IMG/VR virus record: IMGVR_UViG_3300017776_000001
Location: 1 to 64,000 of that record
Reading direction: 5' to 3' (one strand)
Length of the DNA: 64,000 nucleotides
Source: an uncultured virus (IMG/VR IMGVR_UViG_3300017776_000001)
Lineage: Duplodnaviria > Heunggongvirae > Uroviricota > Caudoviricetes
Part shown: piece by piece, positions 40,201 to 63,186 of the stretch
Position numbering within the stretch: the first letter of the stretch is position 1
Layout of the letters: each line of letters begins with the position of its first letter
Notes under the pieces: model-generated
What the model was told of the DNA's origin: nothing
Seen by the model: only the letters and a program-made list of their open reading frames with translations
Databases searched by the model: none
Made by a program: the position numbers and the translations under genes

Positions 40201-43200
40201 GTGGTTTAGAACCCGATGGTCAATTTGAGTTATCAGATGCAGTTGACTTTAGACCAGTAGCAGACCAGTTAATTGGTCTCTCAGGTTTTCCAACACAAGA
40301 CATAGACCCAACAGATTCAAATCTAGTAGACATTAGTGATAGTTCTACAGGTATTACTGCAGCTCCATTTAAATATGAGAGTACAGGATTTACTGCATCT
40401 GCATTAGATGTACCAGTAACGAATAGTGCAATTCAAGGTGACATTACTTTCTATGTACCTAGAATCGATAAAGTATTCTTACATAAAGCTGGTAACTTCC
40501 AAGTAAATAGTGGTGTACCATCTTTATCACCAACTAAACCAAAGGTCATGGATGATGCAATTGAAATGTTTGAATTGTTCATTCCACCGTTTACTGCAAA
40601 CCTAAAGAAAATTAAGATTAAGAGTATCGACCATAGAAGATATACCATGAAGGATATCGGTAGGATACAAAACAGAGTTGCAAACCTAGAAAGACTTACA
40701 ACACTATCTCTCTTAGAAAGAGATACACAAAACATGCAAATCCAAGATGCAGACGGATTCGATAGATTCAAATCAGGATTTGTTGTTGATTCATTTAAGG
40801 GTCATGGTATCGGTGATGTTTCTCATCCTGATTATGGTGTTGCAATTGATACTAAACTAGGTACACTTAGACCACAAGTTTACACTTCATTCTTTGACTT
40901 AGGTCTAAATGAAGCTTCATCATCTAGTTATCAGAAGACTGGTGATTTACTAACACTACCATATTCAGAAAAGACATATGTAAATCAAGATAAAGCATCT
41001 AGAACAATTAATGTCAACCCATATAACGTATTTGCATTTATCGGTAACCTTAAGTTATCTCCAAATTCAGATGTATGGAATGATTCAGAAAGATTACCCG
41101 AAGTTAGAATTAACAGAGAAGGTAACTATGATGCAGTATTAGCTGAGAATACAAACTCACTAGGTACTGTATGGAATGCATGGCAAACAACATGGGTCGG
41201 TGAACCTAATGTTGTAAATGAAGAAGTTGTTTCATCAAGGCCTGGTTCATGGTCAGGAGACCCAGCACAAGGTGGTGAATGGATACCTGGCGAAGATGTT
41301 ACAAGAGTTATTACAGAAACACCCGAGACACAAACAAGAAATGGTGTTAAGACTACAGTAGTCGAAGATTTTGTAGAAGACAGAAGAGACAGGATTGTAA
41401 GTGTAAGTATTATACCTTTCATCCGTTCTAGAAGAGTAGAACTAGATGCACAAAACTTACAACCGAATAGAAAACACTATGTGTTCTTTGATGGTATTAA
41501 CGTCAATGCACATGTTACACCTTTCAGTTCAACATTCGGAGACGGTGGTGCAACTGCAAAAGGAACTGTAATTAAATCAAACAGAAATGGAAGACTTCGT
41601 GCATATTTTGATATACCAAATAACAATGCACAAAGATTCCCAACAGGTCAAAGAGAAGTCAAGATAACTGCAAGTGAAAGTAATCTTTCTAATCCACCTT
41701 CTTATGCAAGTAATGTATATCAGGCACAAGGATTATTGCAGTCATCACAAACAGAAATTATATCTACAAAGAATGGTAGAGTTATTAGAGAAAATCTAAC
41801 AGCAGGTAGAAGTATTGAAAGGTCAGGAGAGTTCTTTAACAGAACTGCAACCGATTTGGATGCACCTCCATTACCACCAGTACCACCAGCTGAAGACCCA
41901 CCATTACCACCTCCACCACCTCCGCCGCCTGACCCACCACCACCAATCGTGACACCACCAGTGGATGAGGCACCAATTATTCCAAATAATATATTTGATG
42001 TCCCCGATGTATGGGAGTTCAGAGGATGGCAAGACCCATTAGCAGAATCTTTCTTAGTAGAGAGTCGTGGTGGTATGTTTATAACATCTATAGATTTATA
42101 CTTTAATACTAAAGATGAAAGTTTACCAGTAACAGTTGAAATTAGAAACATGGTAAATGGTTACCCTGGCCAGATAGTACTTCCGTATTCAGAAGTAACT
42201 AAAAATCCTAATCTGATAAACATCTCAGAGGATGGTTCAGTTGCAACTACATTTACATTTGATTCACCAGTATATGTTGAAGAAGGACAAGAATATTGTT
42301 TCGTAGTATTATCAAACTCTAACAAGTATGAAACATTCATTTCAACTATGGGTGAAGAAGACATTAAAACTGGTCAATTGATATCAGGACAACCGTACGC
42401 AGGTTCATTATTCAAATCACAAAATGCATCAACATGGACTGCAGAACAAACACAAGACCTTAAGTTCCATATGAAAACTGCAAAGTTTGATACAACAAAA
42501 ATTGCAAACATTATATTTGAGAATGGTGATTTAGAAAATGATACACTACAAGTTAACCCTATTCAAACAACATCAGGTTCAAGTAATGTTAAGGTTTATC
42601 ATTATACACATGGTATGTATGATGCAACATCAAATGTAACTTTATCAGGTATACAAGGTGATAGAGAAAACGGTGTAACAAATATAGGTGAAGGAAGTGC
42701 AACATTATTATCAGGGGCATTACCTTCAAATAGTACTTACAATGATATTGCAACTACATCTAGTGGAAGTGGAACTGGGTGTAAACTCAAGTTCGTAGTA
42801 GCTGGTGGTGCAATATCAGATATAGAAATTCAAGATTGTGGTAGTAATTATAGTGTCTCAGATACTTTAACTGTAACAAACTTGGGTAGTACAACTAATA
42901 GTATACAGATTAATATTGATGCTGTAACAGATACTATCGGTGGAGTACCAATTAATCTATTAAATAAAACACATACTGCAATTGCAAATCCAAAACTAGA
43001 CAGTTACGAAGTTGTTGTAGATTGGGATTCAACAGATATTGACGGTGCATCTGCACCATCTGTGTCATCATCTGTGGGTGGAGGAACATCAGTAATAGGT
43101 ACAAGAAACTATTACTTTGATTCAATCCACACAATGATTCCATCATTGACATTGAGAGATACAAGATTAACATGTAACTTACAATTGTGTGCAATGAATT

Positions 43201-43862
43201 CACCCGAAAGTTATGTGAAAGGAACACCGTATGCAATGAGAAACTCTTCTCAATATGTTACACTTAATGACAATGTATTCTTAGACGCACCAAGTATTGT
43301 TGCATCAAGAATTAATGAAGTAAATCAATCATCATTATCAGGTACAAGGTCATTTAAAACACAAGTATCATACATCACTTTGAATGAAAACGTATCACCA
43401 GTAATTGATATGTCTTCAATGGGTGTTATCTGTAATGCAAACAGAGTAAATGGTATGAGTTCAACTAATGAGCAAACAATCACCCCAACAGAAAATGCAG
43501 AAGGTGAGATGAATGCAATGACATATGTAACTAAGAGAGTTAACTTAAAAGAACCAGCATCTTCAATTAAGGTTATGTTAGATGGATTTAGTCCATTAAG
43601 TACAGACCTAAAAGTTATGTACAAGGTTCTATTGAATGACGAATCTACTCCTTTTGATGATGTAGGATACAACTTCTTTAACACCGATGGTTCACCTGAT
43701 ATTATCGTAGATAAAGATGGTAAGAATTTTAAAGAGTACGAATATAGTATAGAAGACTTACCCGAGTTTACATCTTTTGCAATTAAGATTGTAGGACAAG
43801 CACATAATACTTCTGTAGTTCCATTAGTGTCTAACCTTAGAGCAATAGCGTTAGCAACGTAA
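37236..43862 (+). CDS. Large baseplate/fibre-attachment structural protein (VrlC/DUF4815-like)
   Basis: LNVTPYHDDF...VLF...QARELTQSQSILQNQ, APGADR, RRYTMKDIG, DPLAESF, GSLFKSQNASTW. Confidence 0.88.
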   Translation: MTEKTDLNVTPYHDDFSEDKKFHKVLFRAGRPLQARELTQSQSILQNQVERFAGHIFEEGSLVDGAQTDVVYDYGYVKVDNVNPNSVGGSVSTYLDSFKDKYIQGKTSGAVARVYLTVAETSDDPTTLVVKYLAGGTDSSNSFYFDANEELEEVNVDENGNPTSASNNNEFKVQTIDKSPVGRSSVASITEGVVYLRGFFVKVDAAQLILEKYSGQPSYRVGLDISEQLISSADDDSLLDNAQGTTNENAPGADRFKIQTTFVKKLLDTTDDTNFIELYRVVNGTTELKVSSANYSNFENSLARRTYDQSGDFTVRQFIPTLREHLQENDNLGYYTASQGGDVGKFVLQVSPGKAYVRGHEIDKIGTTPISLPKARTVAELSGTSTSARLGNYLKVTNIHSVPEFGNEGGEDSLKPNHLIKLYDSTVSLGTEPSSGQIGFARVRNFDELESVDVDNNKVLDPTSKHALYLFDIKMFTKIGITALSNASPINVGDRVDDTVTGAHGIVADVDYSNDFILVHDVQGTFVVGNTIQSTGSTNTTYNNAIASVRNYNIDRVRGVSQTPSNASREKFTGNVIVDGVKVLSGTVSLTAGSDTVVGFGTRFQDELKEGDVIVNPIDGGEHIVQTVGGATSVTLTANVGSGKTFQGNVTRRRVKLYDQNQTANIFAFSRDFIKSFTPDSCQVRRQTTVEVASQAFTISAGSGNTFPAITASNVNQFVEMAVIEQSSGSPTYLNGDVLDPRDFFTSLSGDSSTLSFGSLATANNGAILKVSYTVNIGSPVQRDKTLREGKMLKVGSPSSQNSFYGTGYDDKEISLGLADVFKIRGIYEAEDGSNPLPPSATIDQLNAGIPFVDKEIIKGQTTGARAKIINYAGDDNTTYFYYLSSTQFNSSESVVGETSTATGTLSNVSSGSKEIKNRYFFDDGQRDGFYDYAKLQLKPGEPAPNNSILIVFDYFTHGAGNFFDVSSYDNQVSYQEIPKYIPNKVDLGGLEPDGQFELSDAVDFRPVADQLIGLSGFPTQDIDPTDSNLVDISDSSTGITAAPFKYESTGFTASALDVPVTNSAIQGDITFYVPRIDKVFLHKAGNFQVNSGVPSLSPTKPKVMDDAIEMFELFIPPFTANLKKIKIKSIDHRRYTMKDIGRIQNRVANLERLTTLSLLERDTQNMQIQDADGFDRFKSGFVVDSFKGHGIGDVSHPDYGVAIDTKLGTLRPQVYTSFFDLGLNEASSSSYQKTGDLLTLPYSEKTYVNQDKASRTINVNPYNVFAFIGNLKLSPNSDVWNDSERLPEVRINREGNYDAVLAENTNSLGTVWNAWQTTWVGEPNVVNEEVVSSRPGSWSGDPAQGGEWIPGEDVTRVITETPETQTRNGVKTTVVEDFVEDRRDRIVSVSIIPFIRSRRVELDAQNLQPNRKHYVFFDGINVNAHVTPFSSTFGDGGATAKGTVIKSNRNGRLRAYFDIPNNNAQRFPTGQREVKITASESNLSNPPSYASNVYQAQGLLQSSQTEIISTKNGRVIRENLTAGRSIERSGEFFNRTATDLDAPPLPPVPPAEDPPLPPPPPPPPDPPPPIVTPPVDEAPIIPNNIFDVPDVWEFRGWQDPLAESFLVESRGGMFITSIDLYFNTKDESLPVTVEIRNMVNGYPGQIVLPYSEVTKNPNLINISEDGSVATTFTFDSPVYVEEGQEYCFVVLSNSNKYETFISTMGEEDIKTGQLISGQPYAGSLFKSQNASTWTAEQTQDLKFHMKTAKFDTTKIANIIFENGDLENDTLQVNPIQTTSGSSNVKVYHYTHGMYDATSNVTLSGIQGDRENGVTNIGEGSATLLSGALPSNSTYNDIATTSSGSGTGCKLKFVVAGGAISDIEIQDCGSNYSVSDTLTVTNLGSTTNSIQINIDAVTDTIGGVPINLLNKTHTAIANPKLDSYEVVVDWDSTDIDGASAPSVSSSVGGGTSVIGTRNYYFDSIHTMIPSLTLRDTRLTCNLQLCAMNSPESYVKGTPYAMRNSSQYVTLNDNVFLDAPSIVASRINEVNQSSLSGTRSFKTQVSYITLNENVSPVIDMSSMGVICNANRVNGMSSTNEQTITPTENAEGEMNAMTYVTKRVNLKEPASSIKVMLDGFSPLSTDLKVMYKVLLNDESTPFDDVGYNFFNTDGSPDIIVDKDGKNFKEYEYSIEDLPEFTSFAIKIVGQAHNTSVVPLVSNLRAIALAT

Positions 43863-44083
43863 TGAGTACAATGAAAGAACTAGCAAGAGTACAAGGAGAA
43901 CAACATCTTTTTAGAGATGAAGAATCAGGTGCTATAATAAGTAATGATAGTCAAACACTTGCAATTTATAAGAAAAGAAAAACAGTGTTTCAAAATCAAA
44001 TAAATGAAATAAATACTCTTAGAGAAGAGATAAATGAAATTAAAGAATTTTTGAGGAATATAACAAATGGCCAAAACAGTTAG
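43862..44083 (+). CDS. Small conserved coiled-coil protein
   Basis: VQG...LFRD..SGAII...EINEIKE.L pattern usual after the VrlC-like gene. Confidence 0.75.
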   Translation: MSTMKELARVQGEQHLFRDEESGAIISNDSQTLAIYKKRKTVFQNQINEINTLREEINEIKEFLRNITNGQNS

Positions 44084-46820
44084 TCAACATAGTACACTCG
44101 AAGAGTGGAGACAGTCGTATAACGAACTAGCATCAGATGTTGGGGATATTGGTGGTTTACGTACTCAAGATAAAACTACACTTGTTGATGCAGTAAACGA
44201 TTTAAGAGATAGAGAATTCTTTTTCCAAGGATTTATTTACACTGCAACTGGTGGTCAAACAGTATTCGAAGGTGCAGACAGTTCATCCGACCAAAATGAA
44301 TTAGAGTTTAGAGACCATAGATTCCTCGTATTCAAAAACGGTGAATTACAACAACTCTCAACAGATTTCACAATATCAAATGTAAATGCAAACGGTAATC
44401 ACACTAGAGTTACACTTACATCGGGTGCAACTAATAATGATATTATCAGAGTGGTTGCATTTACAGGTTCATTCCTTGATGTCGCAGGTCAAGCTGCAGT
44501 ACAAACGTTTTGGACTGAAACATTAGAGAACACAATTTACAATAACAACGATAGTGGTGTTATTATTAATGGTGACATCGGTTCAGTTGTCACAGAATTA
44601 CAATCAGGTTACGTAGTTCAGATAGAAGGTAAAACATTCATCAATGGTGATGTAGACCTTGATACAGGTCATACCCTATCTGCACCTACACTTACAGACA
44701 ACACACTATCAATTAATCAAGGAAACGTCACAGGGGGTGTCACAGGAGACTTCAGTGGTGATTTCAACGTAGGTAATTTAGATGTCGGTGGTGGTTTCAA
44801 TTCAACAGGAGTATCGATTACATCTACTGGTAACATCAATGCAAACGGTAGTGCAGAGATTGATGGAAACCTAAACGTAGATGGTTTAACAACATTAGAT
44901 GGAACAACAATTGATGGTAATCTAGACCTTAATGGTAATCTAGATGCATCAGGAACAGGACACATCGGTGGTAACTTTGATGTCAATACTGATAAGTTTA
45001 CAGTTGCATCAGCAACAGGTAACACTGCAGTAGCAGGAAGATTAGATGTAACTGGTAATCTAGATGTTGATGGTGCAACAACTACAGATGGAATACACAA
45101 CGTAGGTTCTTTAAATCAAGATGGAAGTGTGGACATTTCAACTACACTAGAGGTACATGGAGCTGTAGATTTTAACTCTACTCTAACTGTAGATGGTCAA
45201 TCTAATCTCAATGGTCATGTAAACTTGGGTAATGCATCTACTGATACAGTTACATTCAATGGTGTACTTGATAGTGACATCGTTCCCGATGGAGATAGTT
45301 CAAGAGACTTAGGTACAAACAGTGTTAGATTTTCAAATGCATATATCGATACTACAACAGGTAACCTAGTCGGTAATGCAAGTACAGCTACAACTTTAGA
45401 AACTGCAAGAGATATAGGTGGTGTATCCTTTGACGGAAGTGCAAGTATCAATTTGCCTGGCGTCAACCAATCAGGTAATCAGGACACATCAGGAAACGCT
45501 GCAAGTGCAACTGTATTAGAGACTGCAAGAAATATATCAGGTGTATCTTTTGATGGAAGTGCAGACATAGAATTAAATACTTCTCACATTGATGAAAACG
45601 TTGCAAACCTTTATTTTACAAATGCAAGAGCAGATGCAAGAATAACAAATGCTATTGATACAGACAATACTTTTGCAGATGCATCAAACACTTTAGTTCC
45701 TTCACAGTTAGCAGTCAAATCATACGTTGATTCACAATTAGATTTACAAGACGAACTAAGTGAGATGAGTGGAGACTCAAGTGATATTACAGAACACGCA
45801 ACAACAAATTTATTCTTTACAAATGCAAGAGCAGATGCAAGGATAACAGCTGCAAGTGTTGGAGATTTAAGTGATGTGGACATTACAGGTGTTGCAGCTG
45901 GTCAAGCACTTACATGGAGTGCAAGTAATAATAGGTTCGAACCCACAACACTTGGTAGTTCTACCGACAGTTTTGCAGAAGGGTCATCAAACCTTTACTT
46001 CACAAATGAAAGAGCAAGAGATGCTGTTGCAAGTTTAATAGTAAATTCAAACAGTGTTAGCAATGGTCTTAATGCAACATATAACGATAATGATAATGCT
46101 GAAGGTACATTAGAACTCGATGTTGACCCCGAATATATCAGAGACACAACTGCATCATTCATCACTGGTGGAACACATAGTGGTATCTCATTTACTCACG
46201 ATGATAATAATGATAAATTAAATGCATCTATATCAATAAGTGGTTTTGACACAAATGATTTAAGCGAAGGTGAAACTAATCTTTACTTTACAAATGCAAG
46301 AGCAGATGCTAGAATCGCAGCTGCTAATACAAGTGACTTGTCAGAAGACCCCGATGCAACTGGTTCAAGTGGTACAATGTACTTCACAGACGAAAGAGCT
46401 CGTGACGCTGCAGCTGCAATGATTACTAGTGGTACACACAGTAACATTACAGTCAATTATAATGACACTGCAAATACACTTTCGTTCTCTGCAGCTGCAC
46501 AATACGCAGACTCAGATGCAAGAGGAGCTTTATCAGGTGGGCCAGGTATTGATTACAATACATCAACTGGTAAAATTTCTGCAGACCTAAATGCAAGTGG
46601 TGGATTAGAGTTCCATGCAGCTGGTGATGGTGGTGAGATAAGATTGAAATCTTCAGTGGCAGGTAATGGTCTTGCACATAGTAGTGGTGTTCTCTCTATA
46701 AATACAAGGAAAGGTGTAAAAATAGATTCAGATTTTGTTGAATCAGATTATGAAGTAGTTTCAACAGCACCCTCAAGTGTCAGTGGTACAAACGATGGAC
46801 ATTTGTGGTATGTGGTGTAA
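44067..46820 (+). CDS. Tail fibre protein
   Basis: N-terminal TLEEWR...N anchor; beta-helix GNL.VDG repeats; GNA.TAT.LETAR repeats; LYFTNARA repeats; ends APSSVSGTNDGHLWYVV. Confidence 0.85.
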   Translation: MAKTVSQHSTLEEWRQSYNELASDVGDIGGLRTQDKTTLVDAVNDLRDREFFFQGFIYTATGGQTVFEGADSSSDQNELEFRDHRFLVFKNGELQQLSTDFTISNVNANGNHTRVTLTSGATNNDIIRVVAFTGSFLDVAGQAAVQTFWTETLENTIYNNNDSGVIINGDIGSVVTELQSGYVVQIEGKTFINGDVDLDTGHTLSAPTLTDNTLSINQGNVTGGVTGDFSGDFNVGNLDVGGGFNSTGVSITSTGNINANGSAEIDGNLNVDGLTTLDGTTIDGNLDLNGNLDASGTGHIGGNFDVNTDKFTVASATGNTAVAGRLDVTGNLDVDGATTTDGIHNVGSLNQDGSVDISTTLEVHGAVDFNSTLTVDGQSNLNGHVNLGNASTDTVTFNGVLDSDIVPDGDSSRDLGTNSVRFSNAYIDTTTGNLVGNASTATTLETARDIGGVSFDGSASINLPGVNQSGNQDTSGNAASATVLETARNISGVSFDGSADIELNTSHIDENVANLYFTNARADARITNAIDTDNTFADASNTLVPSQLAVKSYVDSQLDLQDELSEMSGDSSDITEHATTNLFFTNARADARITAASVGDLSDVDITGVAAGQALTWSASNNRFEPTTLGSSTDSFAEGSSNLYFTNERARDAVASLIVNSNSVSNGLNATYNDNDNAEGTLELDVDPEYIRDTTASFITGGTHSGISFTHDDNNDKLNASISISGFDTNDLSEGETNLYFTNARADARIAAANTSDLSEDPDATGSSGTMYFTDERARDAAAAMITSGTHSNITVNYNDTANTLSFSAAAQYADSDARGALSGGPGIDYNTSTGKISADLNASGGLEFHAAGDGGEIRLKSSVAGNGLAHSSGVLSINTRKGVKIDSDFVESDYEVVSTAPSSVSGTNDGHLWYVV

Positions 46821-46843: not shown

Positions 46844-49084
46844 ATGTCAAATGAAACATATATTAATACAGGGACTAGTTTTCAACAACCCTTCAATGAT
46901 AGAAGACCTGTACAACAAAGTTACCAATATAACAATCAAGAAAATAGACAGAGACCTGTACAACAAAATTATCAGTACAACAACGTAGAGAATAGACAGA
47001 GACCTGCTAGACAATCGTATCAATACAATAACGTAGAGAACAGACAAAGACCAGCTAGACAGTCATATCAATACAATAACGTAGAGAGCAGACAGAGACC
47101 AACAAGACAGTCTTATCAGTACCATAATAGAGTACAACAAAATACTCAACAAGATTACACTTATCATAATAGGACACAACAACCGAATCAGCAGAACTAT
47201 ACCTATCATAATAGAGTAGATAGACAACGTCCTGTACAACAAAATTATCAGTATCATAATAGAGTAAATAGACAAAGACCTGCTCGACAACCTTACACTT
47301 ATCACAACCGTGTTCAACAAGATACTCAGCAAACTTATCAGTATCATAATAGGATTCCAACCACTACTCAACAAGAATACACTTATCACAATCGTGTTCA
47401 ACAAAATACTCAACAAACGTATGTGTACCATAATAGAATACAAGAAAGCACTCAGCAAAATTATCAGTACAACAACGTAGAGTCAAAACAAAGACCTGTT
47501 AGGAATCAAGCACACCAAAATTACATTCATTACATGCAAGTTTATGGGGGTTCAGGAGATACAGCTGCTATTAAGATGGAAACACCATATGGTCAGGTAA
47601 CTAATACGATACCATCTTTTGAGTTCATGGGGTTTCCAATGCAAGAACAACGTACCGTAAGTGGAAGTCAATATACGTTCCAAGCAAGACAAGCATCGGG
47701 TAATGCACATGAAGGAGACTCATTTAGGGGTGCAATGTTCTTCAGAGGGCCACAGTATAGCTTACAAGGAACTCAGTCACCATACTATGAAGGTGCGGGG
47801 CCACAGGGAAATCATACAAATTATACACAGTGGGAGATGCAAGGATTTTCTTTTGAGGGACAGTTCCAAAGACAATGGACAGGACGTTTAAGATACACAG
47901 GAAAGAATACTAAGTTTGCAGCTCACATGGAAGCTACTGATACTGTGCAAAACCAAACCGTCCCCAATCCTCAAAGACAAGGACATCCTCAGGGACAGGG
48001 GAATCAAGGACTTGAATTTCTTTCTCAACATCCAAATAATTCTCAATATGGAATTACAATTACCAGTGGTCAGTATACAAGATTGGGGTGGGAACATGAG
48101 GGGTCATTTAATTCTCAGGTTCAATCACCAGTTAACCCCCGAAATATTCCTCAAACAGCGTTGAGAAATAAAGGAACCTTTGTAAGAGTGAGACCCCGTG
48201 GTTATGCAAGACAAGAACAATTTACTACAGGTGTTGCTTTAGATTTTGCATCAGTAGCTGCACAAGGTCTTGATTATCAGGTACCTACTGCAAATCTTAA
48301 TGATAAACAACAACCTGCTCAACAAACTTATTCATACCATAATCAATTACCTAGAAGAAGACCCGTTAGAACTCAACGAAACGAAGATTCAGATAGACAA
48401 AGACCAGTAAGAGTACAAACACTTTCATCTGAAACAAAACGTAGACCAACTACAGTACAACAATTACAACGTGTATCTAGACGAAGACCAGTTAGAAATC
48501 AAGTCAATCAGGCTAATGAACAACAAAGAAATATACAACAAACATATCAGTATAATAATATTGTAACTAAACAACGTCCTGTACAACAAACTTATCCATA
48601 TAATAATGTTGAGACTAGACAAAGACCTGTTAGAAATCAAGTTAATGAAGATGTGACTAGACAAAGACCTGCTAGGGTTGCAGTATTACAAAGAGTTTCT
48701 AGACAAAAGAATTTGCAACAAACATATTCTTATCACAATCAGGTTCCTAGAAGAAAATCTGTACAACAGACTTATAGTTATCATAACAGAGTAACAAGAC
48801 AAAAGAATTTACAACAGACTTATAGTTATCATAATCAGGTTCCAAGACGTAGACCAGTACAACAGACTTATAATTATCATAATCAGGTTCCAAGACGTAG
48901 ACCAGTGAGACAACCATTCCCTTCAACAAGACCTATAGGGCCTCTTGCAAAGGTTAAACAAATTTGGATTAATGAAGGTGGAGTGTTAAGAAAAATGGAT
49001 GAAGTGTACTTAAATGATAGTGGAACATTGAAAAAGACTCATCAAAGTGTACCAACTTCTCAATTAACAGACCCGAACACTTAA
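46844..49084 (+). CDS. Mirror-repeat protein A (putative hairpin-stalk adhesin)
   Basis: 13 repeat units (46913-47500), 273 aa core (47501-48319), 13 repeat units (48320-48907), C-terminal KVKQIWINEGG...DEVYLNDSG module. Confidence 0.85.
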   Translation: MSNETYINTGTSFQQPFNDRRPVQQSYQYNNQENRQRPVQQNYQYNNVENRQRPARQSYQYNNVENRQRPARQSYQYNNVESRQRPTRQSYQYHNRVQQNTQQDYTYHNRTQQPNQQNYTYHNRVDRQRPVQQNYQYHNRVNRQRPARQPYTYHNRVQQDTQQTYQYHNRIPTTTQQEYTYHNRVQQNTQQTYVYHNRIQESTQQNYQYNNVESKQRPVRNQAHQNYIHYMQVYGGSGDTAAIKMETPYGQVTNTIPSFEFMGFPMQEQRTVSGSQYTFQARQASGNAHEGDSFRGAMFFRGPQYSLQGTQSPYYEGAGPQGNHTNYTQWEMQGFSFEGQFQRQWTGRLRYTGKNTKFAAHMEATDTVQNQTVPNPQRQGHPQGQGNQGLEFLSQHPNNSQYGITITSGQYTRLGWEHEGSFNSQVQSPVNPRNIPQTALRNKGTFVRVRPRGYARQEQFTTGVALDFASVAAQGLDYQVPTANLNDKQQPAQQTYSYHNQLPRRRPVRTQRNEDSDRQRPVRVQTLSSETKRRPTTVQQLQRVSRRRPVRNQVNQANEQQRNIQQTYQYNNIVTKQRPVQQTYPYNNVETRQRPVRNQVNEDVTRQRPARVAVLQRVSRQKNLQQTYSYHNQVPRRKSVQQTYSYHNRVTRQKNLQQTYSYHNQVPRRRPVQQTYNYHNQVPRRRPVRQPFPSTRPIGPLAKVKQIWINEGGVLRKMDEVYLNDSGTLKKTHQSVPTSQLTDPNT
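46913..48907 (+). repeat. Two coding tandem arrays of 42/48 bp units flanking a unique core
   Basis: Units QQxYxY(H/N)NxxxRxRPV (16 aa) and 14 aa variants. Confidence 0.95.
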
Positions 49085-53624: not shown

Positions 53625-53960
53625 ATGGCAACAGCAAACTTTACAATCGATTATGGTTTGACAGTTGGTTCATCTGAAGTAATCACATCTAGTGGTAAAG
53701 TAGTGGCAGCTGCAGTATCAACTTTGACAACTGATAATTTAACACAGGGGTCGACAAATCTGTATTTTACAGGTTCACAGTTTAATACATCTTTTGCTTC
53801 TAAAGACACAGACGATTTATCAGAAGGGTCATCAAACCTTTACTTCACAGATACTAGAGCGAGAGGTTCTATATCTTTAGCATCAGGTGAAACCAATTTA
53901 TCTTATAACAGCACAAGTGGTGAACTATCATTACCAACAGTTGATGGAGGTACATTCTAA
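53625..53960 (+). CDS. Small fibre-associated protein
   Basis: TDDLSEGSSNLYFT repeats; ends VDGGTF. Confidence 0.75.
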   Translation: MATANFTIDYGLTVGSSEVITSSGKVVAAAVSTLTTDNLTQGSTNLYFTGSQFNTSFASKDTDDLSEGSSNLYFTDTRARGSISLASGETNLSYNSTSGELSLPTVDGGTF

Positions 53961-56263
53961 TGGCAGGTGAAAAGAATTTTAACGTCAAGAATGGTCTATC
54001 GGTTGCTGGAACAGAAGTCATTCAAACAGATGGAACTTATGTAGGTTCCATTTCTGCAACTGCACTTAACGAAAGTGTAGACGATAGAGTTGCAAACCTC
54101 TTACAAGCAGGAGCTGGTATTGGATTATCATACGATGATGCAAATAACCAATTAACAATCACAGGTAATGTTGGTGATATCACTGGTGTTAACGCAGGTG
54201 CTGGTTTAACAGGTACTGCAACTTCAGGTGATGCAACATTAAACATTGGTGCTGGTACAGGTATTACTGTAAATGCAGATGACATTGCAATCAACTTTAA
54301 AGACGAAGACAACATGTCTTCAAACAGTGCAATACACGCTGCAACACAACAATCAATTAAAGCATATGTAGATTCCCAAGTATCAAGTAAAGACAACACA
54401 GACGAAATTACAGAAGGAAGTTCAAACCTCTACTATACAAATGAAAGAGTAGATGACAGAGTAAGTTCATTACTTACCGAAGGAAGTGGTATATCATTAA
54501 CATATGATGATACAGCTAACACACTTACAGTTGCAAATACAAACTCTGCAGATATTACAGCAGTAACAGCAGGAAATGGTTTGACTGGTGGTGGAACTTC
54601 AGGTGCAGTGTCACTTGCAGTTCAAGTTGATGACAGTTCATTAGAACTTGCATCAGATACAGTTCAAGTAAAAGCAGGTGGTATCACTAATGATATGTTA
54701 GCAGGTTCTATTGTAAATGGAAAACTTGCAAACAATTCAATATCAGTTAACTCAACTTCCGTATCCCTTGGTGGTTCTGTTACTTTAGACACTGGTGATA
54801 TTTCAGAAAATGGAAATCTATACCATACATCAGAAAGAGTTGACGATAGAGTCAATGCATTAATTACTGCTGGTACCAATATAACAACATCATATGATGA
54901 TGCAGCTGGTACACTTACAATTAACTCTTCAGGTAAAACACAAGAACAAATAGAAGACATCGTAAATGGTTTAGTAGTTGGTGGAACAAACATCACTTCT
55001 ACATACGATGATACAAATGGTACACTTACACTTGCTGGTTTATCAAATGGAGATATCAGAGGTTTATTATCTGCAACTGGAGATTTATCATACAACAGTA
55101 CTACAGGTGCATTCTCATTCACAGAAAGAACAAATGCAGAAGTAAGAGGTTTATTCTCAGCAGGTGGTGACTTAGCATACAACAGCACAACAGGTGCATT
55201 TAGTGTAACAAAATTCACAACTGCAAATGCAAGAAGTTCAATTTCAGCAGGTGGTGATTTAGCATACAATTCAAGTACTGGTGTTATCTCATACAGTGAA
55301 CCTACAATGTATGCAGACTCAGATGCAAGAGGAGCTATATCAGTAACAGACTCAGGTGGAGACGGTTCACTTGCATATAATTCTTCTACTGGTGTTATCA
55401 CATACACAGGCCCAAGTGCATCAGAAGTTCGAGCTCATCTAAGTGCTGGAACTGGTGTTGGATTCTCAGGTGGTGCATTTAGTATCGGTCAGGCAGTCGC
55501 AACAAACAGTAATGTAACATTTGCAGATGTAAATGCAAGTGGTGATTTAGTAGTCACAGGTGACTTAACAGTTAATGGGTCAACAGTTACCAACAGTGCA
55601 TCAAATACAACAATCGAAGATGCATTGATTGAACTTGGTTCAGGTAACACAGGTTCAAACTCTAATGACTTAGGTCTTATCCTCGAAAGAGGTTCAACTG
55701 GTGATAATGTATTCATGGGTTGGGACGAAAGTTCAGATAGAGTTAGATTTGCAACTACAACAGCAACAGGTTCATCCAGTGGTGCATTAACACTTACTAA
55801 TGCAAACATACAAGCAGGAAGACTTTACGGTGCTGTTACAGGTAACGTAACTGGTAATGCAGACACAGCTTCTGCATGGGCAGATGCAAGAACTATCTCT
55901 TTAGGTGGTGACCTTACAGGTTCCGTATCTATAGATGGTAGTGCAAACGCAACACTTAATGCAACAGTTGGTTCAAATGCAGTTGCATTAGGTTCAAACA
56001 CAACAGGAAATTACGTATCAGGAATATCAGGAACCTCAAATGAGATTACAATCTCAGGTTCAGGTAGTGAAAATGCAACAGTAACAATAGGTCTACCCGA
56101 TGATGTAACTATCGGTGATGCATTATCAGTTACTGGTAAAGGTACTACAGATTTTACAACAATCGGTAGTTCAGACGGAGCATTTAGAAATACTTTCATA
56201 CATTCAGCAGGCCCATCAGGAAGTGATGGACAAGTCGGTGATGTATGGATAACTTACTCATAA
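53960..56263 (+). CDS. Tail fibre protein
   Basis: ERVDDRV...YDD repeats, GDLAYNSTTG repeats; ends GPSGSDGQVGDVWITYS. Confidence 0.85.
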   Translation: MAGEKNFNVKNGLSVAGTEVIQTDGTYVGSISATALNESVDDRVANLLQAGAGIGLSYDDANNQLTITGNVGDITGVNAGAGLTGTATSGDATLNIGAGTGITVNADDIAINFKDEDNMSSNSAIHAATQQSIKAYVDSQVSSKDNTDEITEGSSNLYYTNERVDDRVSSLLTEGSGISLTYDDTANTLTVANTNSADITAVTAGNGLTGGGTSGAVSLAVQVDDSSLELASDTVQVKAGGITNDMLAGSIVNGKLANNSISVNSTSVSLGGSVTLDTGDISENGNLYHTSERVDDRVNALITAGTNITTSYDDAAGTLTINSSGKTQEQIEDIVNGLVVGGTNITSTYDDTNGTLTLAGLSNGDIRGLLSATGDLSYNSTTGAFSFTERTNAEVRGLFSAGGDLAYNSTTGAFSVTKFTTANARSSISAGGDLAYNSSTGVISYSEPTMYADSDARGAISVTDSGGDGSLAYNSSTGVITYTGPSASEVRAHLSAGTGVGFSGGAFSIGQAVATNSNVTFADVNASGDLVVTGDLTVNGSTVTNSASNTTIEDALIELGSGNTGSNSNDLGLILERGSTGDNVFMGWDESSDRVRFATTTATGSSSGALTLTNANIQAGRLYGAVTGNVTGNADTASAWADARTISLGGDLTGSVSIDGSANATLNATVGSNAVALGSNTTGNYVSGISGTSNEITISGSGSENATVTIGLPDDVTIGDALSVTGKGTTDFTTIGSSDGAFRNTFIHSAGPSGSDGQVGDVWITYS

Positions 56264-56277
56264 GAGTTTAATATAAT

Positions 56278-59200
56278 ATGGCGCAACGAATAAAGAACCC
56301 TACGGGGTGGGTAAACACAACAGGAAGCTGGGTAAAAACATCTCCAACTGAATGGTCGGCAGTAGATTCTATCTATTCAAAGACACCTACTGGGTGGGTA
56401 AAGTCATCAGGACAAATGCCAGCTCAAGTAGTTGCAACAAGACCAGCAGTTGGGACAAGACCTTACAACTTCCAACAATCTTATCAATTCACTGTGCAAC
56501 AGTCGTATCAGTATCATAATAGGGTACAGGCATCTACACAACAGTCATATCAGTATCATAACAGGGTTCAAACAAGTGTTCAACAAGATTACACTTATCA
56601 CAACCGTGTTCAACAAAATACTCAACAGACATATACCTATCATAATAGAGTACAAAGAAGAAGACCAGTACAACAAGCATATACCTATCATAATAGAGTA
56701 CCTAGACGTAGACCAGTACAACAGACTTATAGTTATCACAATCAGGTACCAAGACGTAGACCAGTACAACAGACGTACGTCTATCATAATCAGGTACCAA
56801 GACGTAGACCTACACAACAATCATATCAATACCATAATAGAGTTGGTAGACAACGTGTAGTACAACAGGGTTATACTTATCACAATAGAGGACAAGCTTC
56901 TACCCAACAGACTTACCAGTATCATAACAGAGTTCAAACAAGTACTCAACAACCTTACACTTATCATAATAGGGTACCTAGAAGAAGACCTGTACAACAG
57001 TCGTATCAGTACCATAATAGAGTACAAAGAAGAAGACCTGTTCAACAGACGTATACCTATCATCATAGAATACCAAGACGTAGACCAGTACAACAGGCAT
57101 ACACTTATCACAATAGGATACAAACAAGTACTCAACAGGCATACACTTATCACAATAGGGTACCTAGAAGAAGACCAGTCCAACAGGCATACCAGTACCA
57201 CAATAGGGTGCAGAGAAGAAGACCTGTTCAACAGTCGTATCAGTACCATAATAGAGTACCTAGAAGAAGACCAGTACAACAAGGGTATACTTATCATAAT
57301 AGAGGACAAGCATCAACTCAACAGACTTATCAATATCATAACAGAGTTCAAGCTTCTACTCAACAGAGTTACCAGTATCATAATAGGGTTCAGACTAGTG
57401 TACAACAATCATACCAATACCATAATAGAGTACAGGTAAGTACACAACAGAATTACCAGTACAACAATACTGAATCAAGAAGAAGACCTGTACAACAAAG
57501 TTACCAGTACAACAATCAAGAGTCTAGAAGAAGACCAGTACAACAGGTATACCAGTATCATAATCAGGTACCTAGAAGAAGACCTGTACAACAGACGTAT
57601 ACCTATCATAATCAGGTACCAAGACGTAGACCTGTACAACAAAGTTACCAGTACAATAATCAAGAGACAAGACGTAGACCAGCACAACAGTCTTATACGT
57701 ATCATAATAGACTTCAAGCTAGGTATAGTTACCAACAACCTTATAGTTATCACAATCAGGTACCAAGACGTAGACCTGTGCAACAAGCATACACTTATCA
57801 TAATCAGGTTCCAAGACGTAGACCAGTTCAACAGTCTTATCAGTACAATAATCAAGAGTCAAGACGTAGACCAGTTCAACAGTCTTATCAGTACAATAAT
57901 CAAGAGCCAAGACGTAGACCAACACAACAGTCTTATCAGTTTAACCAACCTACACCTAGAAGAAGACCTGTACAACAAACATACCAGTTTAACCAACCTA
58001 CATCTAGGACAAGACAGACTACAGTAAGGAATAGCGCACACACAGCTTACATCCATTATGGAAATATCTATGGTGGTGGTGGTGATACATCTGTTATTAA
58101 GGTAGAAACTCCATACGGACAAAGAACTTCCTATATACCATCTTTTGAGTTCTCGGGTTTCCCAATGAATGCTCAGAATACAGGTACTGCAAGTCCATTT
58201 GGTTTTGCAGGAAGACCTGATGGAAAAGGACATGAAAGAGATTCCTTTAGAGGAAACATGATGTTCAGAGGGCCTTCGTTACAAATGTCAGGTACACAAT
58301 CACCATTCTTTACTGGTAGTGGCCCACAAAACCAATCAACATCACCGAAGAGTTGGCACTATAGAAGTTACTTTGGTGGACAAAGACAGTGGCAGGGTGT
58401 GTTAAGATTTGTTGGTGCGAACATGGAATTTGGTGCTGATTTCGTTGCAGGGCCAGCTGCTCAATCTGTTCAAAGTATACCTAACCCACAGAGACAAGGT
58501 TCAATACCTATTACAGGACAAGCACCAACTAATTCTCAATATGGTGCAAAAATAACGAGTGGACAGACTGCAACATTTAAATGGTCACAAGATGGTCAGA
58601 TGCAGTCACAATCACCCGGCGGTGGAGGTGGAGGATTCCCACTATTTGTCAGAAACAAAGGTGATGTATTCGTTAGAAGTAGAGATTTGTCTCATGTTCA
58701 CCAAGTAACTTTCAGTAATAGTGCTGGTGTGACATGGCCTCAAGGTCAGATGAACGAGATGCAACAGCCTGGTCAACAGAACCAACCGTACACTTATCAT
58801 AATAGGGTACAAAGACGTAGACCAACACAACAACCGTACACTTATCATAATAGGGTACCTAGAAGAAGACCAGTACAACAGGCATACACTTATCATAATC
58901 AGGTACCTAGAAGAAGACCTGTGCAACAAGCGTACACTTATCATAATCAGGTACCAAGACGTAGACCTGTACAACAAAGTTACCAGTACAACAATCAAGA
59001 GTCTAGAAGAAGACCAGTACAACAAAGTTACCAGTACAATAATACTGAGACTAGGAGAAGACCTGCTAGGTCAGACTATCGAGTCAACCAACCTACTCCT
59101 AGAAGAAGACCAGTACAACAGACGTATACCTATCATAATAGAATACCGAGACGTAGACCAGTGCAACAATCTTATCAGTACAATAATACTGAGACTAGAA

Positions 59201-60426
59201 GAAGACCAGTGCAATCGTCTTATCAGTACAATAATACTGAATCTAGAAGAAGACCAGTTCAACAGACGTATACTTATCATAATAGAATACCAAGACGTAG
59301 ACCTGTACAACAAAGTTATCAGTATCATAATCAGGTACCTAGAAGAAGACCAACTAGAGTACAAACATTACAGAGGGTGTCAAGACAGAGACCAGCAAGA
59401 GTACAAGCTTTACAACGTGTATCAAGACGTAGACCAACAAGAGTACAACAGTTGCAACGTGTCTCTAGACAAAGACCAGCAAGAGTACAGGTTAACATTC
59501 AAGAAACAAGAAGAAGACCAGTACAACAAAGTTACCAGTACAATAATATTGTAACTAGACAACGTCCTGTACAACAAGGTTATCAATATAATAATATTGA
59601 GTCTAGAAGAAGACCAGTGCAACAGGGTTATCAATATAATAATACTGAGACTAGAAGAAGACCAACTAGAGTACAGGTGAACCAACCTTCTCCTAGAAGA
59701 AGACCTGTTCAACAGAGTTATCAGTATAATAGTACTGAGAACAGACAGAGACCAGTACAACAAGGTTATCAGTATAATAATATTGAGACTAGACAACGTC
59801 CTGTACAACAAGGTTACCAGTATAATAATGTTGAGACTAGAAGAAGACCAGCAAGAGTACAACAGTTGCAACGTGTTTCTAGACAAAGACCTGCTAGAGT
59901 TCAGGTAAATATACAAGAAACTAGAAGAAGACCAGCACAGCAAACTTATCAGTACAATAATATTGTAACTAGACAACGTCCAACACAACAGAATTATCAA
60001 TATAATAATACTGAAAATAGACAGAGACCAGTGCAACAAGGTTACCAGTATAATAATACTGAAAACAGACAAAGACCAGTGCAACAGGGTTATCAATATA
60101 ATAATATTGAGTCTAGAAGAAGACCAGTGCAACAGGGTTATCAATATAATAATATTGAGTCTAGACAAAGACCAGCAAGAGTTCAGGTTCTACAGAATGT
60201 AACTAGACAAAGACCTGCTAGAACACAGGTATTGCAGAGAGTTTCAAGACAGAGACCTACTAGGGTACAGGTATTGCAAAGAGTTTCAAGACAGAGACCA
60301 GCACAGTCATCCCGTCAGAAGGTTACAGTTGGTATACAACCATATGCATATCAACAACCGTATAGAAATACAGTTCAGAAATGGGATGGTACAACGTCTT
60401 GGCCTGCACAACCAATATCCTCTTAA
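56278..60426 (+). CDS. Mirror-repeat protein B (putative hairpin-stalk adhesin)
   Basis: Trp-rich N-terminal module, 33 units (56497-58020), 253 aa core (58021-58779) paralogous to that of protein A, 33 units (58780-60303). Confidence 0.85.
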   Translation: MAQRIKNPTGWVNTTGSWVKTSPTEWSAVDSIYSKTPTGWVKSSGQMPAQVVATRPAVGTRPYNFQQSYQFTVQQSYQYHNRVQASTQQSYQYHNRVQTSVQQDYTYHNRVQQNTQQTYTYHNRVQRRRPVQQAYTYHNRVPRRRPVQQTYSYHNQVPRRRPVQQTYVYHNQVPRRRPTQQSYQYHNRVGRQRVVQQGYTYHNRGQASTQQTYQYHNRVQTSTQQPYTYHNRVPRRRPVQQSYQYHNRVQRRRPVQQTYTYHHRIPRRRPVQQAYTYHNRIQTSTQQAYTYHNRVPRRRPVQQAYQYHNRVQRRRPVQQSYQYHNRVPRRRPVQQGYTYHNRGQASTQQTYQYHNRVQASTQQSYQYHNRVQTSVQQSYQYHNRVQVSTQQNYQYNNTESRRRPVQQSYQYNNQESRRRPVQQVYQYHNQVPRRRPVQQTYTYHNQVPRRRPVQQSYQYNNQETRRRPAQQSYTYHNRLQARYSYQQPYSYHNQVPRRRPVQQAYTYHNQVPRRRPVQQSYQYNNQESRRRPVQQSYQYNNQEPRRRPTQQSYQFNQPTPRRRPVQQTYQFNQPTSRTRQTTVRNSAHTAYIHYGNIYGGGGDTSVIKVETPYGQRTSYIPSFEFSGFPMNAQNTGTASPFGFAGRPDGKGHERDSFRGNMMFRGPSLQMSGTQSPFFTGSGPQNQSTSPKSWHYRSYFGGQRQWQGVLRFVGANMEFGADFVAGPAAQSVQSIPNPQRQGSIPITGQAPTNSQYGAKITSGQTATFKWSQDGQMQSQSPGGGGGGFPLFVRNKGDVFVRSRDLSHVHQVTFSNSAGVTWPQGQMNEMQQPGQQNQPYTYHNRVQRRRPTQQPYTYHNRVPRRRPVQQAYTYHNQVPRRRPVQQAYTYHNQVPRRRPVQQSYQYNNQESRRRPVQQSYQYNNTETRRRPARSDYRVNQPTPRRRPVQQTYTYHNRIPRRRPVQQSYQYNNTETRRRPVQSSYQYNNTESRRRPVQQTYTYHNRIPRRRPVQQSYQYHNQVPRRRPTRVQTLQRVSRQRPARVQALQRVSRRRPTRVQQLQRVSRQRPARVQVNIQETRRRPVQQSYQYNNIVTRQRPVQQGYQYNNIESRRRPVQQGYQYNNTETRRRPTRVQVNQPSPRRRPVQQSYQYNSTENRQRPVQQGYQYNNIETRQRPVQQGYQYNNVETRRRPARVQQLQRVSRQRPARVQVNIQETRRRPAQQTYQYNNIVTRQRPTQQNYQYNNTENRQRPVQQGYQYNNTENRQRPVQQGYQYNNIESRRRPVQQGYQYNNIESRQRPARVQVLQNVTRQRPARTQVLQRVSRQRPTRVQVLQRVSRQRPAQSSRQKVTVGIQPYAYQQPYRNTVQKWDGTTSWPAQPISS
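56497..60303 (+). repeat. Two coding tandem arrays of 42/48 bp units flanking a unique core
   Basis: Each arm has 23 16-mers and 10 14-mers = 508 aa. Confidence 0.95.
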
Positions 60427-60445
60427 ATAAAAGGACTAAATATTA

Positions 60446-60474
60446 TTGACTAAAACATGATTAGATGTTATAAT
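60446..60474 (+). promoter_or_regulatory. Sigma70-type promoter with extended -10
   Basis: TTGACT-N17-TATAAT with TG at the extended -10 position. Confidence 0.75.
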
Positions 60475-60482
60475 GGAGTATT

Positions 60483-61937
60483 ATGAAGTATATTGATTTA
60501 CCCGACCCAGTGAGTGTGAAAAGTTCTTTCAACGACCATCTTGGTGGATTGAATAAAACAAAACCCAAGAAAGAAGTGATGATTAAAATCAAAGAAAAGT
60601 TTGATGAAATCTCACGTATATACAAACCTAAAATAGTTTCACTTGGTGACTTGCACAAAAAGTATGGTGTAAGTTACCAAGAAGACTCCTCACATAAAAT
60701 TAGGGATTTCTTTCGTGCATTACAAGTTGGAGAAGCAGCTGTTGATGCAGAAGACTTTGAAAGAATAAATGGTGATGAGAACTCTTCTCGTCTCTATCAT
60801 GCAACTAAATTACATTTCTTAATTCAAGATATCCGAGACAAAGGAATTGAATACGGCCCTCAAGGTGTATTGTATTGGCCTCCTACTGCAGATGCAGATG
60901 AGATTAGATACTTTGTACATCCCGGCACTGGAAGATATTCTGCAATCAAATATTTACAAAAATGGGATACTGAGTGTTTGGTATGGGATGCATATGACGT
61001 ATGTTATGACCATAAACCAATGTCTTACTCTGAATGGATAGTTCACACTTTTAAAAATAATCTATATCCCGATATGAATCATGTGTCTTATTGTTGGAAT
61101 CAAGGTATCATAGAAGCACACCAAAATAGAGACATGAGAGGTGACTATACTGAAGCAAATGACTACTTACATTATACACTATTCAATGGTGAGATACCAA
61201 CTATATACGTTGGATATGATGGTAGACATGGTGAAGTTTCAGATGTTTGTATAAAGAGTATACAACATTCTATTGAAAGATACAATAACAAAATGGGAGA
61301 CTTATCAAGTGTTCCGTGGAATGCATTCGTTAATATTAAAAAACTTGACGTTTCAAAGATTCCCGAGTATACTAGAGAGTATGCAAACCAATCAACAGAG
61401 TTTACGTATAGTAGATTCATGATACCATACTTAGAGAAATATCAAGGTGTCAGTATGTTTGTGGATGATGACTTTATCTTCACAGAAGATATGTTACACT
61501 TATTTTATTCACTAGGACATACTGATTCCGTTGCATGTTTCCATCATGACTTTTCTGATAAAGGTATTACAGAAAAATTAGGTGGAGAAAAGAATGTATG
61601 GTATCCTAAAAAACTATGGTCAAGTCTTATGATATTTAACAACGGTCATAAGGATTGTAGAAAACTAACACCCGAGGTGGTAAACACACAATCGGGTCAA
61701 TATCTACATCAATTTAAATGGACAGATAATGTAGTCAAACTTCAAGACGATTGTTGTTGGACTGAAGGTTACTCTGATGAACCATATAACGTAAAGAAAC
61801 ATAGAATGATTCATTACACAAATGGGGGCCCATGGATTGAAAACTTCAATGATAGTGTTCAACAAATTGGTAGATATAATTATTATAAAAATCTCGTAGA
61901 GATTGACAACAAAAAGGTGAAAGAAAATGGCAAATAG
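60483..61937 (+). CDS. Two-domain protein: unknown N-terminal domain plus GT-A glycosyltransferase
   Basis: C-terminal half IYVGYD, STEFTYSRFMIPYL..YQG.SMFVDDDF, YPKKLWSSLMIFN, LHQFKW, IHYTNGGPW. Confidence 0.8.
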   Translation: MKYIDLPDPVSVKSSFNDHLGGLNKTKPKKEVMIKIKEKFDEISRIYKPKIVSLGDLHKKYGVSYQEDSSHKIRDFFRALQVGEAAVDAEDFERINGDENSSRLYHATKLHFLIQDIRDKGIEYGPQGVLYWPPTADADEIRYFVHPGTGRYSAIKYLQKWDTECLVWDAYDVCYDHKPMSYSEWIVHTFKNNLYPDMNHVSYCWNQGIIEAHQNRDMRGDYTEANDYLHYTLFNGEIPTIYVGYDGRHGEVSDVCIKSIQHSIERYNNKMGDLSSVPWNAFVNIKKLDVSKIPEYTREYANQSTEFTYSRFMIPYLEKYQGVSMFVDDDFIFTEDMLHLFYSLGHTDSVACFHHDFSDKGITEKLGGEKNVWYPKKLWSSLMIFNNGHKDCRKLTPEVVNTQSGQYLHQFKWTDNVVKLQDDCCWTEGYSDEPYNVKKHRMIHYTNGGPWIENFNDSVQQIGRYNYYKNLVEIDNKKVKENGK

Positions 61938-62496: not shown

Positions 62497-63186
62497 ATGG
62501 AAGTTGTATATCTAGATAAACCCTTTAAGATACAGAAATTCCCCTTAGATAAAATCTATGTCTTAGACGATTGGGTAACATACGAAATCATGTATAACAT
62601 GAGGAGACTAACCTCAAGAACTATATGGGCTCAAAACAATCAGGTAAATAGAAACGGTAAGATACGTCATCTGTTTTGGGGTGCAACATTCTATGAGGGC
62701 AAAGATAAAAAAATTAGAGACCATACTTATCATATGCAAGACACCTATCTTATCAGATATCTAGATTGGAAACTTCAATCAGAGTTTGGTTTTAGATGGG
62801 AAAAATTTCAGTATGCTGGTATGAATGGTCAGACCACTGGTCTTCAAGGGACTATACACGAAGATAGTTCTCCTGAAAATACAACTAATATATCTTTCTT
62901 ATGGTACAACACTGAGTATTGGGAAAAAGAATGGGGTGGCCCACTTAAATTTTATAACGAAGAAGCAAAACATATAGATGGTTATAAAGAAGAGTATTTA
63001 AAACATCAGATTGCACAGGTTGATTATAAACCAAATAGATTACTAATGTTTGATGGGAGTATACCACACAATGCAGATGCTCCAAATGATGCATGTGAAT
63101 ATGCATGTAGACAGTCTCTAGTTATACGAGGTGATGCATGTCGACTAGAGAATGAATTAGATTATTATGCCAACGATAGAATTTAA
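62497..63186 (+). CDS. 2OG-Fe(II) oxygenase (prolyl-hydroxylase-like)
   Basis: HED (HxD), WEKEWGGPLKF, PNRLLMFDGSIPH, RQSLV. Confidence 0.9.
   Translation: MEVVYLDKPFKIQKFPLDKIYVLDDWVTYEIMYNMRRLTSRTIWAQNNQVNRNGKIRHLFWGATFYEGKDKKIRDHTYHMQDTYLIRYLDWKLQSEFGFRWEKFQYAGMNGQTTGLQGTIHEDSSPENTTNISFLWYNTEYWEKEWGGPLKFYNEEAKHIDGYKEEYLKHQIAQVDYKPNRLLMFDGSIPHNADAPNDACEYACRQSLVIRGDACRLENELDYYANDRI

Follow-up and report, generated by a model that had tools for sequence, protein, structure and literature searches.

Anatomy of the long gene and its mirrored unit classes

The window analyzed here was the whole stretch of 64,000 nucleotides (nt) corresponding to positions 1 to 64,000 of the record IMGVR_UViG_3300017776_000001 (IMG/VR), an uncultured virus assigned to the Caudoviricetes. 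On its plus strand lies a gene for a protein of 1382 amino acids (aa) in which two arms of repeat units flank a central core, and in which the units of one arm are matched, in reverse order, by units of complementary class in the other. The gene was taken from a list of open reading frames and divided as follows.

56278..60426, plus strand: the long gene of mirrored arms (1382 aa; the span includes the stop codon)
56278..56496, plus strand: N-terminal head (aa 1-73), Trp/Thr-rich and non-repetitive
56497..58020, plus strand: N arm (aa 74-581), 508 aa, 33 units, bbbHHHHHbbHHHbHHHbbbbNNHHN*HHNNNN
58021..58779, plus strand: core (aa 582-834), 253 aa, Gly/Ser/Gln-rich, the putative tip domain
58780..60303, plus strand: C arm (aa 835-1342), 508 aa, 33 units, HHHHNN*HNNHHeeeeNNNeNNNeeNNNNNeee
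60304..60423, plus strand: C-terminal tail (aa 1343-1382)

Units were assigned to four classes, two of 16 aa (H, QQxYxYHNxxxRxRPV; N, QQxYQYNNxExRxRPV) and two of 14 aa (b, QQxYxYHNRVQxST; e, RVQxLQRVSRQRPx or RVQVNxxExRRRPx), with an asterisk for the one odd unit in each arm. Arm boundaries were obtained from a scripted parse and then from a dynamic-programming segmentation without hand-set inner boundaries, and the two tilings were identical. An earlier sequence-only reading of the window had parsed the repeats by hand; its class strings, its two arms of 508 aa and its core of 253 aa were reproduced exactly by script.

Read backwards, the C arm gives eeeNNNNNeeNNNeNNNeeeeHHNNH*NNHHHH. When the arms were compared in reverse order, with b scored against e and H against N, 33/33 units were complementary, as that reading had proposed unit for unit, whereas only 7/33 were complementary in parallel order. 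The number of distinct unit arrangements possible is 3.6e14. Shuffling the C-arm units 200,000 times gave a mean of 11.4 and a maximum of 23 complementary units, so that no shuffle exceeded 23 against the 33 observed; 200,000 run-preserving shuffles reached a maximum of 28.

Finer features of the mirror were examined at the level of single units. The two odd units do oppose each other as originally described, and were refined by the dynamic-programming segmentation to an H-like unit with an aberrant second half (RLQARYSY) opposite an N-like unit with an aberrant first half (RSDYRV); the aberrant halves thus oppose each other. Both HNRGQAST units oppose RVQVNIQET units in the window, and likewise in the related long genes L002 and L005 (described below). 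The reported pairing of the YHH unit with the YNS unit was found in the window and not in L002 or L005, where YHH units oppose ordinary YNN units, and this detail therefore does not generalize. The arms are rich in Q, N and Y. Net charge was +79 for the N arm, +92 for the C arm and +186 for the whole long protein (isoelectric point (pI) 11.5).

Long antisense frames run through the arms (56821-57309 and 59422-60168, both on the minus strand, among others) and reach 248 aa. Their translations (LLYWSTSW...) are of low complexity and look like by-products of the codon make-up of the repeats.

Short paralogue in the same window

A second, shorter gene of the same design (P0009) sits 7 kb upstream of the long gene, and these two are the only family copies in the 72,301-nt record from which the window was taken. 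Its parts are listed below.

46844..49084, plus strand: short paralogue P0009, 746 aa, 13+13 units
Start of 46844..49084, plus strand: head (aa 1-23)
46913-47500, plus strand: N arm (aa 24-219), NNNNbbHHbbbbN
47501-48319, plus strand: core (aa 220-492)
48320-48907, plus strand: C arm (aa 493-688), HHHHeeNNeeeeH when reversed
End of 46844..49084, plus strand: tail (aa 689-746)

All 13 of its 13 unit pairs were complementary and its arms were of equal length (196/196 aa), and its core was 47% identical to that of the long gene. The tail weakly matched phrog_13729 (function not assigned, E 4e-7). A domain shared between the head of the long protein and the tail of the short one was considered and rejected, since BLASTP gave no alignment.

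At position 57827 of the window, a contig in runs X1 and X4 leaves the N arm of the long gene and enters the start of the short-paralogue tail sequence. This branch was traced to a 33-nt stretch shared in the assembly graph and is not a structural variant.

Relatives and compensated unit switches

Relatives were sought with the core by HMMER over 1.84 billion representatives, which returned 8 proteins only; scans of viral and metagenome contigs added few loci with the family. No match was obtained when the long core and P0009 were compared by tblastn with 50,697 phage records, none of 185,579 prokaryote genomes yielded a relative, and a protein homologue search with the long core, restricted to near lengths, returned none. 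Ten full-length genes could be parsed for arm comparison; one further locus (L024) holds only the 3' end of a gene, at a contig edge.

Equal and fully complementary arms were found in 6/10 full-length genes (the other four are weighed below). Three of the six are long, namely the window gene and L005 (each 33/33 units, 508/508 aa) and L002 (33/33, 504/504 aa), and three are short, namely the window gene (13/13 units, 196/196 aa) and L007 and L014 (each 13/13, 194/194 aa); the L007 protein is identical to the L008 protein. Differences of unit class between these lineages were then scored against the opposite arm. L002 differs from the window gene and L005 at 7 inner positions, every one of them matched by a change in the opposite arm. 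Among the short genes, L007 and L014 differ from the window gene by 1 class difference, which is compensated, and P0014 and P0006 differ from the L007 type by 3 more, also compensated. The total was 11 compensated switches and 0 uncompensated, tallied per unit position, so that the number of underlying events may differ from 11.

In L002 and P0014, the N arm includes e units and the C arm b units, and these still oppose each other. Unit for unit (13/13), the N arm of P0014 moreover complements the C arm of P0006, a fragment of the same lineage whose core is 98% identical to that of P0014.

Residue covariation, unit geometry and register

Covariation between facing units was measured against a control in which partners were shuffled within class and protein; orthologous units entered the counts and are not independent of one another. 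The position pairs that covaried most strongly in H/N pairs were (15,1), (1,15), (14,1), (1,13) and (11,3), and the mean positive z peaked on two anti-diagonals, at 3.6 for i+j=16 and 2.6 for i+j=14, and was lower where the sum was odd. In b/e pairs, the residue at position 5 of the b unit was Q where the partner e unit has LQ in 48/52 pairs, and in 39/41 distinct sequence pairs (Fisher p = 1.6e-9), under a rule that was framed post hoc and over orthologous units that are not independent.

H and N units diverge most at positions 7, 9 and 10, which form the unit midpoint. With H and N units laid flush and antiparallel, His7 lies opposite Glu or Asp at position 10 in 68/86 pairs, and Asn7 lies opposite Val, Ile or Leu at position 10. 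Units of 14 aa oppose units of 14 aa, and units of 16 aa those of 16 aa, exactly. Proline occupies position 15 in 74/84 H units and 83/86 N units and is also present at position 11 in most units. Taken together, the covariation and the class-defining residues at the midpoint suggest that pairing proceeds by half-units.

Alternative registers were scored in the same way. The best slipped register of the long gene gave 21/32 complementary units with a longest run of 5, and that of the short gene 8/12 with a longest run of 3. An arm paired antiparallel with itself gave at most 14/29, and cross-pairing of long with short arms at most 8/13. With four classes in aperiodic order and lengths of 14 and 16 aa mixed, no slipped register comes close to the flush one.

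Authenticity and selection

No inverted DNA repeat was found between the arms. A DNA palindrome was accordingly rejected as the source of the mirror, and translation of the N-arm reverse complement gives a sequence unlike the C arm. DNA identity within a unit class averaged 66-77%, that between H and N units was 63%, and the longest exact repeat in the long gene was 67 nt. Seventeen public runs contained at least 0.89 of the words sampled from 55800-60900, and contigs of 3 independent studies cover the arms in tiles that agree at every letter, with 0 indels and 0 joints. The same architecture was seen on independent contigs from other samples. No RNA run was listed among those that carry the gene; three runs labeled as metatranscriptomes held small shares (0.05-0.16), and X18 gave four short, low-depth pieces on the gene, which were taken as evidence neither for nor against expression.

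Between orthologues, the ratio of nonsynonymous to synonymous substitution rates (dN/dS) was 0.06-0.12 for the arms, at a synonymous rate of 0.6-1.1, and 0.24-0.26 for the core; against L005 it was 0.10 for the N arm and 0.12 for the C arm. By these ratios the arms are under strong purifying selection, tighter than that on the core.

Family searches

The sole Pfam match of the long protein was to Fibrinogen_BP (PF08017; aa 1135-1344), at 38 bits and thus below the curated cut-off of 50. Both have basic repeats of 16 residues (Arg/Gln-rich in PF08017); the short paralogue gave no match to the family, and the likeness is compositional. No PHROG family was found for the long protein. The head matched nothing in Pfam or PHROGs, and the core nothing in Pfam, PHROGs, the PDB sequences or the ESM Atlas. 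With phmmer, the 1382-aa protein had 0 matches among all PDB chains at E<=1, and the core profile A2 gave 0 matches against the PDB at E<=10.

Genomic context

PHROG matches in the window included baseplate hub, wedge subunits, tube, tail lysozyme, end protector and a gp32-like single-stranded DNA-binding protein. The baseplate wedge protein (gp6 in some of the matched records) was closest to those of OM43 phage Melnitz (41%), Pelagibacter phage Mosig (40%) and HTVC008M (39%). Judged by this gene content, the source is a T4-type myovirus and the long gene stands at the end of its baseplate and fibre module. Each mirror gene is directly preceded by a fibre-like gene, an order also found in L002.

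53960..56263, plus strand: structural gene of fibre-like type (767 aa) that immediately precedes the long gene; matched phrog_697, structural protein (E 8.7e-35)
44067..46820, plus strand: fibre-like gene, 917 aa, directly upstream of P0009; several tail-fibre PHROGs, e.g., phrog_6722 (E 1.9e-31)

The 917-aa protein also gave a sub-threshold match to Bactofilin (PF04519; 22 bits, cut-off 27.9) over aa 262-341, which suggests a beta-helical repeat segment.

Further genes were noted around the two mirror genes. Directly downstream of the long gene lies a conserved gene for a 484-aa protein (60483-61937), which is also present in L002 and L024; the protein has an acidic VDDDF stretch, matched phrog_28018 (function not assigned, E 3e-38) and had no Pfam match. 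It may, for instance, act in the modification or assembly of the fibre. A 229-aa protein (62497-63186) matched the Pfam 2OG-Fe(II) oxygenase family PF13640 (28.7 bits, cut-off 27); its best PHROG, phrog_274, is labeled 'DNA endonuclease V', which conflicts with PF13640. A 2,208-aa protein (37236-43862; phrog_358, function not assigned) contains a proline run, PPLPPVPPAEDPPLPPPPPPPPDPPPP, near aa 1544-1570 (about 41860-41950), and is not a mirror-repeat protein.

A proposed fold-back fibre and its alternatives

On the sequence evidence above, antiparallel, in-register pairing of the two arms is very probable when all models of such pairing are taken together. The original proposal of antiparallel pairing by a complementary code is in this respect well supported by the compensated switches, the anti-diagonal covariation, the unique register and the purifying selection. 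Among the models of such pairing, we favour one with moderate confidence, namely that the long protein makes a fibre on the virion of a marine T4-like myovirus by a single fold-back of the chain, with the arms antiparallel and in register and the core at the tip.

In this fold-back model, the N arm would run outward, the 253-aa core would fold at the far end, and the C arm would return antiparallel and in register, which would bring head and tail together at the base, the expected site of attachment. The core, at the distal tip, would likely be the part that contacts the host. The pairing element would be the half-unit, with the Tyr-rich QQxYxY(H/N)N half of one unit lying opposite the Arg/Pro-rich xxxR(R/Q)RPV half of its partner; in 14-aa units, the 6-aa spacer of b would oppose the 6-aa spacer of e. 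The residues that define class would meet at the middle of the unit (His7 opposite Glu10, Asn7 opposite Val10), and the cationic centre of an H unit would call for a polar or acidic centre in the N unit opposite. The same code would keep the two paralogous fibres of the phage from cross-pairing. In an extended, beta-like conformation, the long fibre would measure about 130-170 nm and the short one 50-65 nm. Pairing within one chain, and any trimerisation, are steps that we infer.

Several observations weigh against this model. Structure prediction lent it no support: the whole short paralogue was modeled by AlphaFold2 (8 sequences) at a mean predicted local distance difference test score (pLDDT) of 29.6 with its arms as coil, and the core with two units per side (11 sequences) at a low-confidence pLDDT of 42.7. 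The latter model placed strands at 10-27 and 290-307, which are mirror positions, and predicted the core as all-beta, both at low confidence; DSSP assigned no helix to the arms in either of these weak models, and a Foldseek search of the core-plus-units model against the PDB gave no match at E<=0.001. The two arms each carry a strong positive charge, and pairing would have to overcome their repulsion. No single short-read contig spans an arm, and contigs break inside the arms. The covariation, as noted, draws in part on orthologous units.

Unequal arms count on the same side. The sequence-only reading had named homologues with unequal or non-complementary arms as a case that would refute it, and had raised the question whether insertions and deletions are always mirrored. 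Arms were unequal in 4/10 full-length relatives (P0002, 13/8 units; P0012, 11/13; P0013, 12/13; P0014, 13/11), so that strictly mirrored indels are not universal in the data as assembled. These four proteins lack 5, 2, 1 and 2 whole units, respectively, in one arm only; all of their aligned units remain complementary, with 0 mismatches. P0013 equals the L014 protein (L014:1480-3756) minus one 14-aa b unit, and in L014 that unit lies on an exact tandem repeat of 41 nt, the longest in the gene, which makes assembly collapse and replication slippage both plausible. The one-arm gaps in the four proteins are possibly assembly collapses or natural variants that tolerate a bulge.

The arms could instead pair as coded between different chains, giving an antiparallel dimer (a rod of double length with the cores at its centre), domain-swapped oligomers or a network. 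Complementarity, compensated switches, anti-diagonal covariation and uniqueness of register fit this rival as well as they fit the fold-back, and as far as sequence can tell, intra-chain and inter-chain pairing are served alike, which is a further point against a confident single-chain reading. It was nonetheless judged unlikely, because proximity favours pairing within a chain and because a symmetric rod with two ends hardly suits a fibre that is anchored by one of them. Both arms, moreover, lie within one gene in all 10 full-length members, and an arm-based scan of viral contigs for arms in split genes returned 8 loci in 5 known contigs, none of them split.

A stalk in which the units pair as coded and pack compactly, as solenoid rungs, as a cross-beta stack (a polar zipper of Q, N and Y) or as a strongly supercoiled rod, would be several-fold shorter than 170 nm. 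The richness of the arms in Q, N and Y is in keeping with such packing, and the 8+8 half-unit periodicity could suit the faces of a beta-helix; the gp5 beta-helix carries octapeptide repeats (PMC3004832). The exact matching of 14 with 14 and 16 with 16 residues and the covariation along i+j=constant are, however, what an extended antiparallel ladder predicts, and proline at position 11 and especially at position 15 is awkward for stacked in-register sheets. We give the compact stalk little credence.

Slighter still is the case for arms that do not touch each other and that both line a common partner of two-fold or antiparallel symmetry, such as a polyanion (nucleic acid or a polymer of the cell surface) or another fibre, the order of which the mirror would then follow. 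The extreme positive charge (+186, pI 11.5) and the adjoining fibre gene of each paralogue are compatible with a partner of this kind. A uniform polyanion, however, would not require H to oppose N and b to oppose e, nor compensated switches, nor covariation of facing residues, and no nucleic-acid-binding family was detected in the Pfam scans.

An artefact (a mis-assembled repeat array, an inverted duplication of DNA or non-coding sequence) would accord with the breaks of short-read contigs inside the arms and with the four database relatives that differ by whole units, but it is hardly credible given the lack of an inverted repeat and the unlike reverse-complement translation, units only 63-77% identical in DNA with no exact repeat above 67 nt, letter-for-letter contigs from 3 independent studies, 17 runs with at least 0.89 of the sampled words, the same architecture on independent contigs from other samples and an arm dN/dS of about 0.1, and given that random collapse would destroy a mirror and not make one.

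Comparison with known systems

The proposed fold-back fibre was compared with protein and nucleic-acid structures that share some part of its design. The tip of T4 gp37 consists of a collar, a six-stranded antiparallel needle and a receptor-binding head (PMC7291167, PMC9659904); the needle is about 15 nm long (PMC3004832), and histidine motifs coordinate iron ions along its axis (PMC6957217). Like that tip, the long protein belongs to a T4-type tail-fibre block and is proposed to send its chain out to a globular head and back, with an antiparallel stalk and an apical domain. It differs in scale, with two arms of 508 residues here against a needle of about 15 nm, and in showing no detectable sequence or profile similarity (phmmer and core profile against the PDB; Pfam; PHROGs). 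The gp37 iron motif has the form HxH. The arms of both paralogues contain 0 HxH motifs; each H or b unit has a single isolated histidine, for totals of 34 across the long arms and 13 across the short ones. A modular code of 14- and 16-aa units with compensated switches is also absent from the available portions of the gp37 descriptions (PMC7291167, PMC9659904, PMC6957217). By analogy, the long protein would work like the gp37 needle; it is not a member of that family, failing on sequence and on histidine motifs.

The arms of SMC, Rad50 and MukB and the stalk of colicin Ia are antiparallel coiled-coil hairpins that extend over tens of nm and carry a functional domain at the apex. In these hairpins, the lengths and interruptions of the two arms must match in mirror order, a logic shared with the arms described here. 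Unlike their helical heptads, the present arms have periods of 14 and 16 aa, with Pro at positions 11 and 15 of most units, and discrete complementary classes, and showed no helix by DSSP in the weak models. With nucleic-acid hairpins and designed ionic-complementary beta-sheet peptides, the arms would share a register set by complementarity, compensatory change that preserves pairing and the possibility of bulges; they differ from both in an alphabet of 14- and 16-residue units, in place of bases or single charges, that is natural and contained in one polypeptide. Triple beta-spiral and triple beta-helix shafts (adenovirus fibre, gp5/gp12) are parallel trimers with repeats of about 15 or 8 residues, similar in length to the units here (16 = 8+8), but a parallel shaft gives no reason for complementarity in reverse order, and parallel order gave 7/33 here.

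A literature search on fold-back and mirror-repeat fibres, the gp37 needle and pelagimyophages, covering mostly titles and listings, returned no description of a mirror-coded repeat fibre. The design is best placed with the out-and-back fibre tips, as a variant of these; as a principle, the code may be new.

Implications

The broadest form of the proposal is that a natural peptide pairing code, comparable to Watson-Crick pairing, sets the unique register of a single-chain hairpin of >100 nm, tolerates compensated changes and perhaps bulges, and gives orthogonal fibres in one virion. We hold the chances for and against this form to be even. If the arms zip, the protein would fix its own long-range register by a modular, readable code, otherwise a trait of nucleic acids, and this would explain how a repetitive stalk of ~500 residues avoids slipped mis-pairing. 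Phages would then also have a way of making fibres that differs from the parallel trimeric shaft; such a construction principle would be new and could be put to direct use in programmable protein nanostructures. The natural compensatory variants and the two orthogonal paralogues form a ready test set for protein design. For the viruses themselves, the finding concerns the adsorption apparatus of abundant uncultured marine myoviruses related to pelagimyophages and OM43 myophages.

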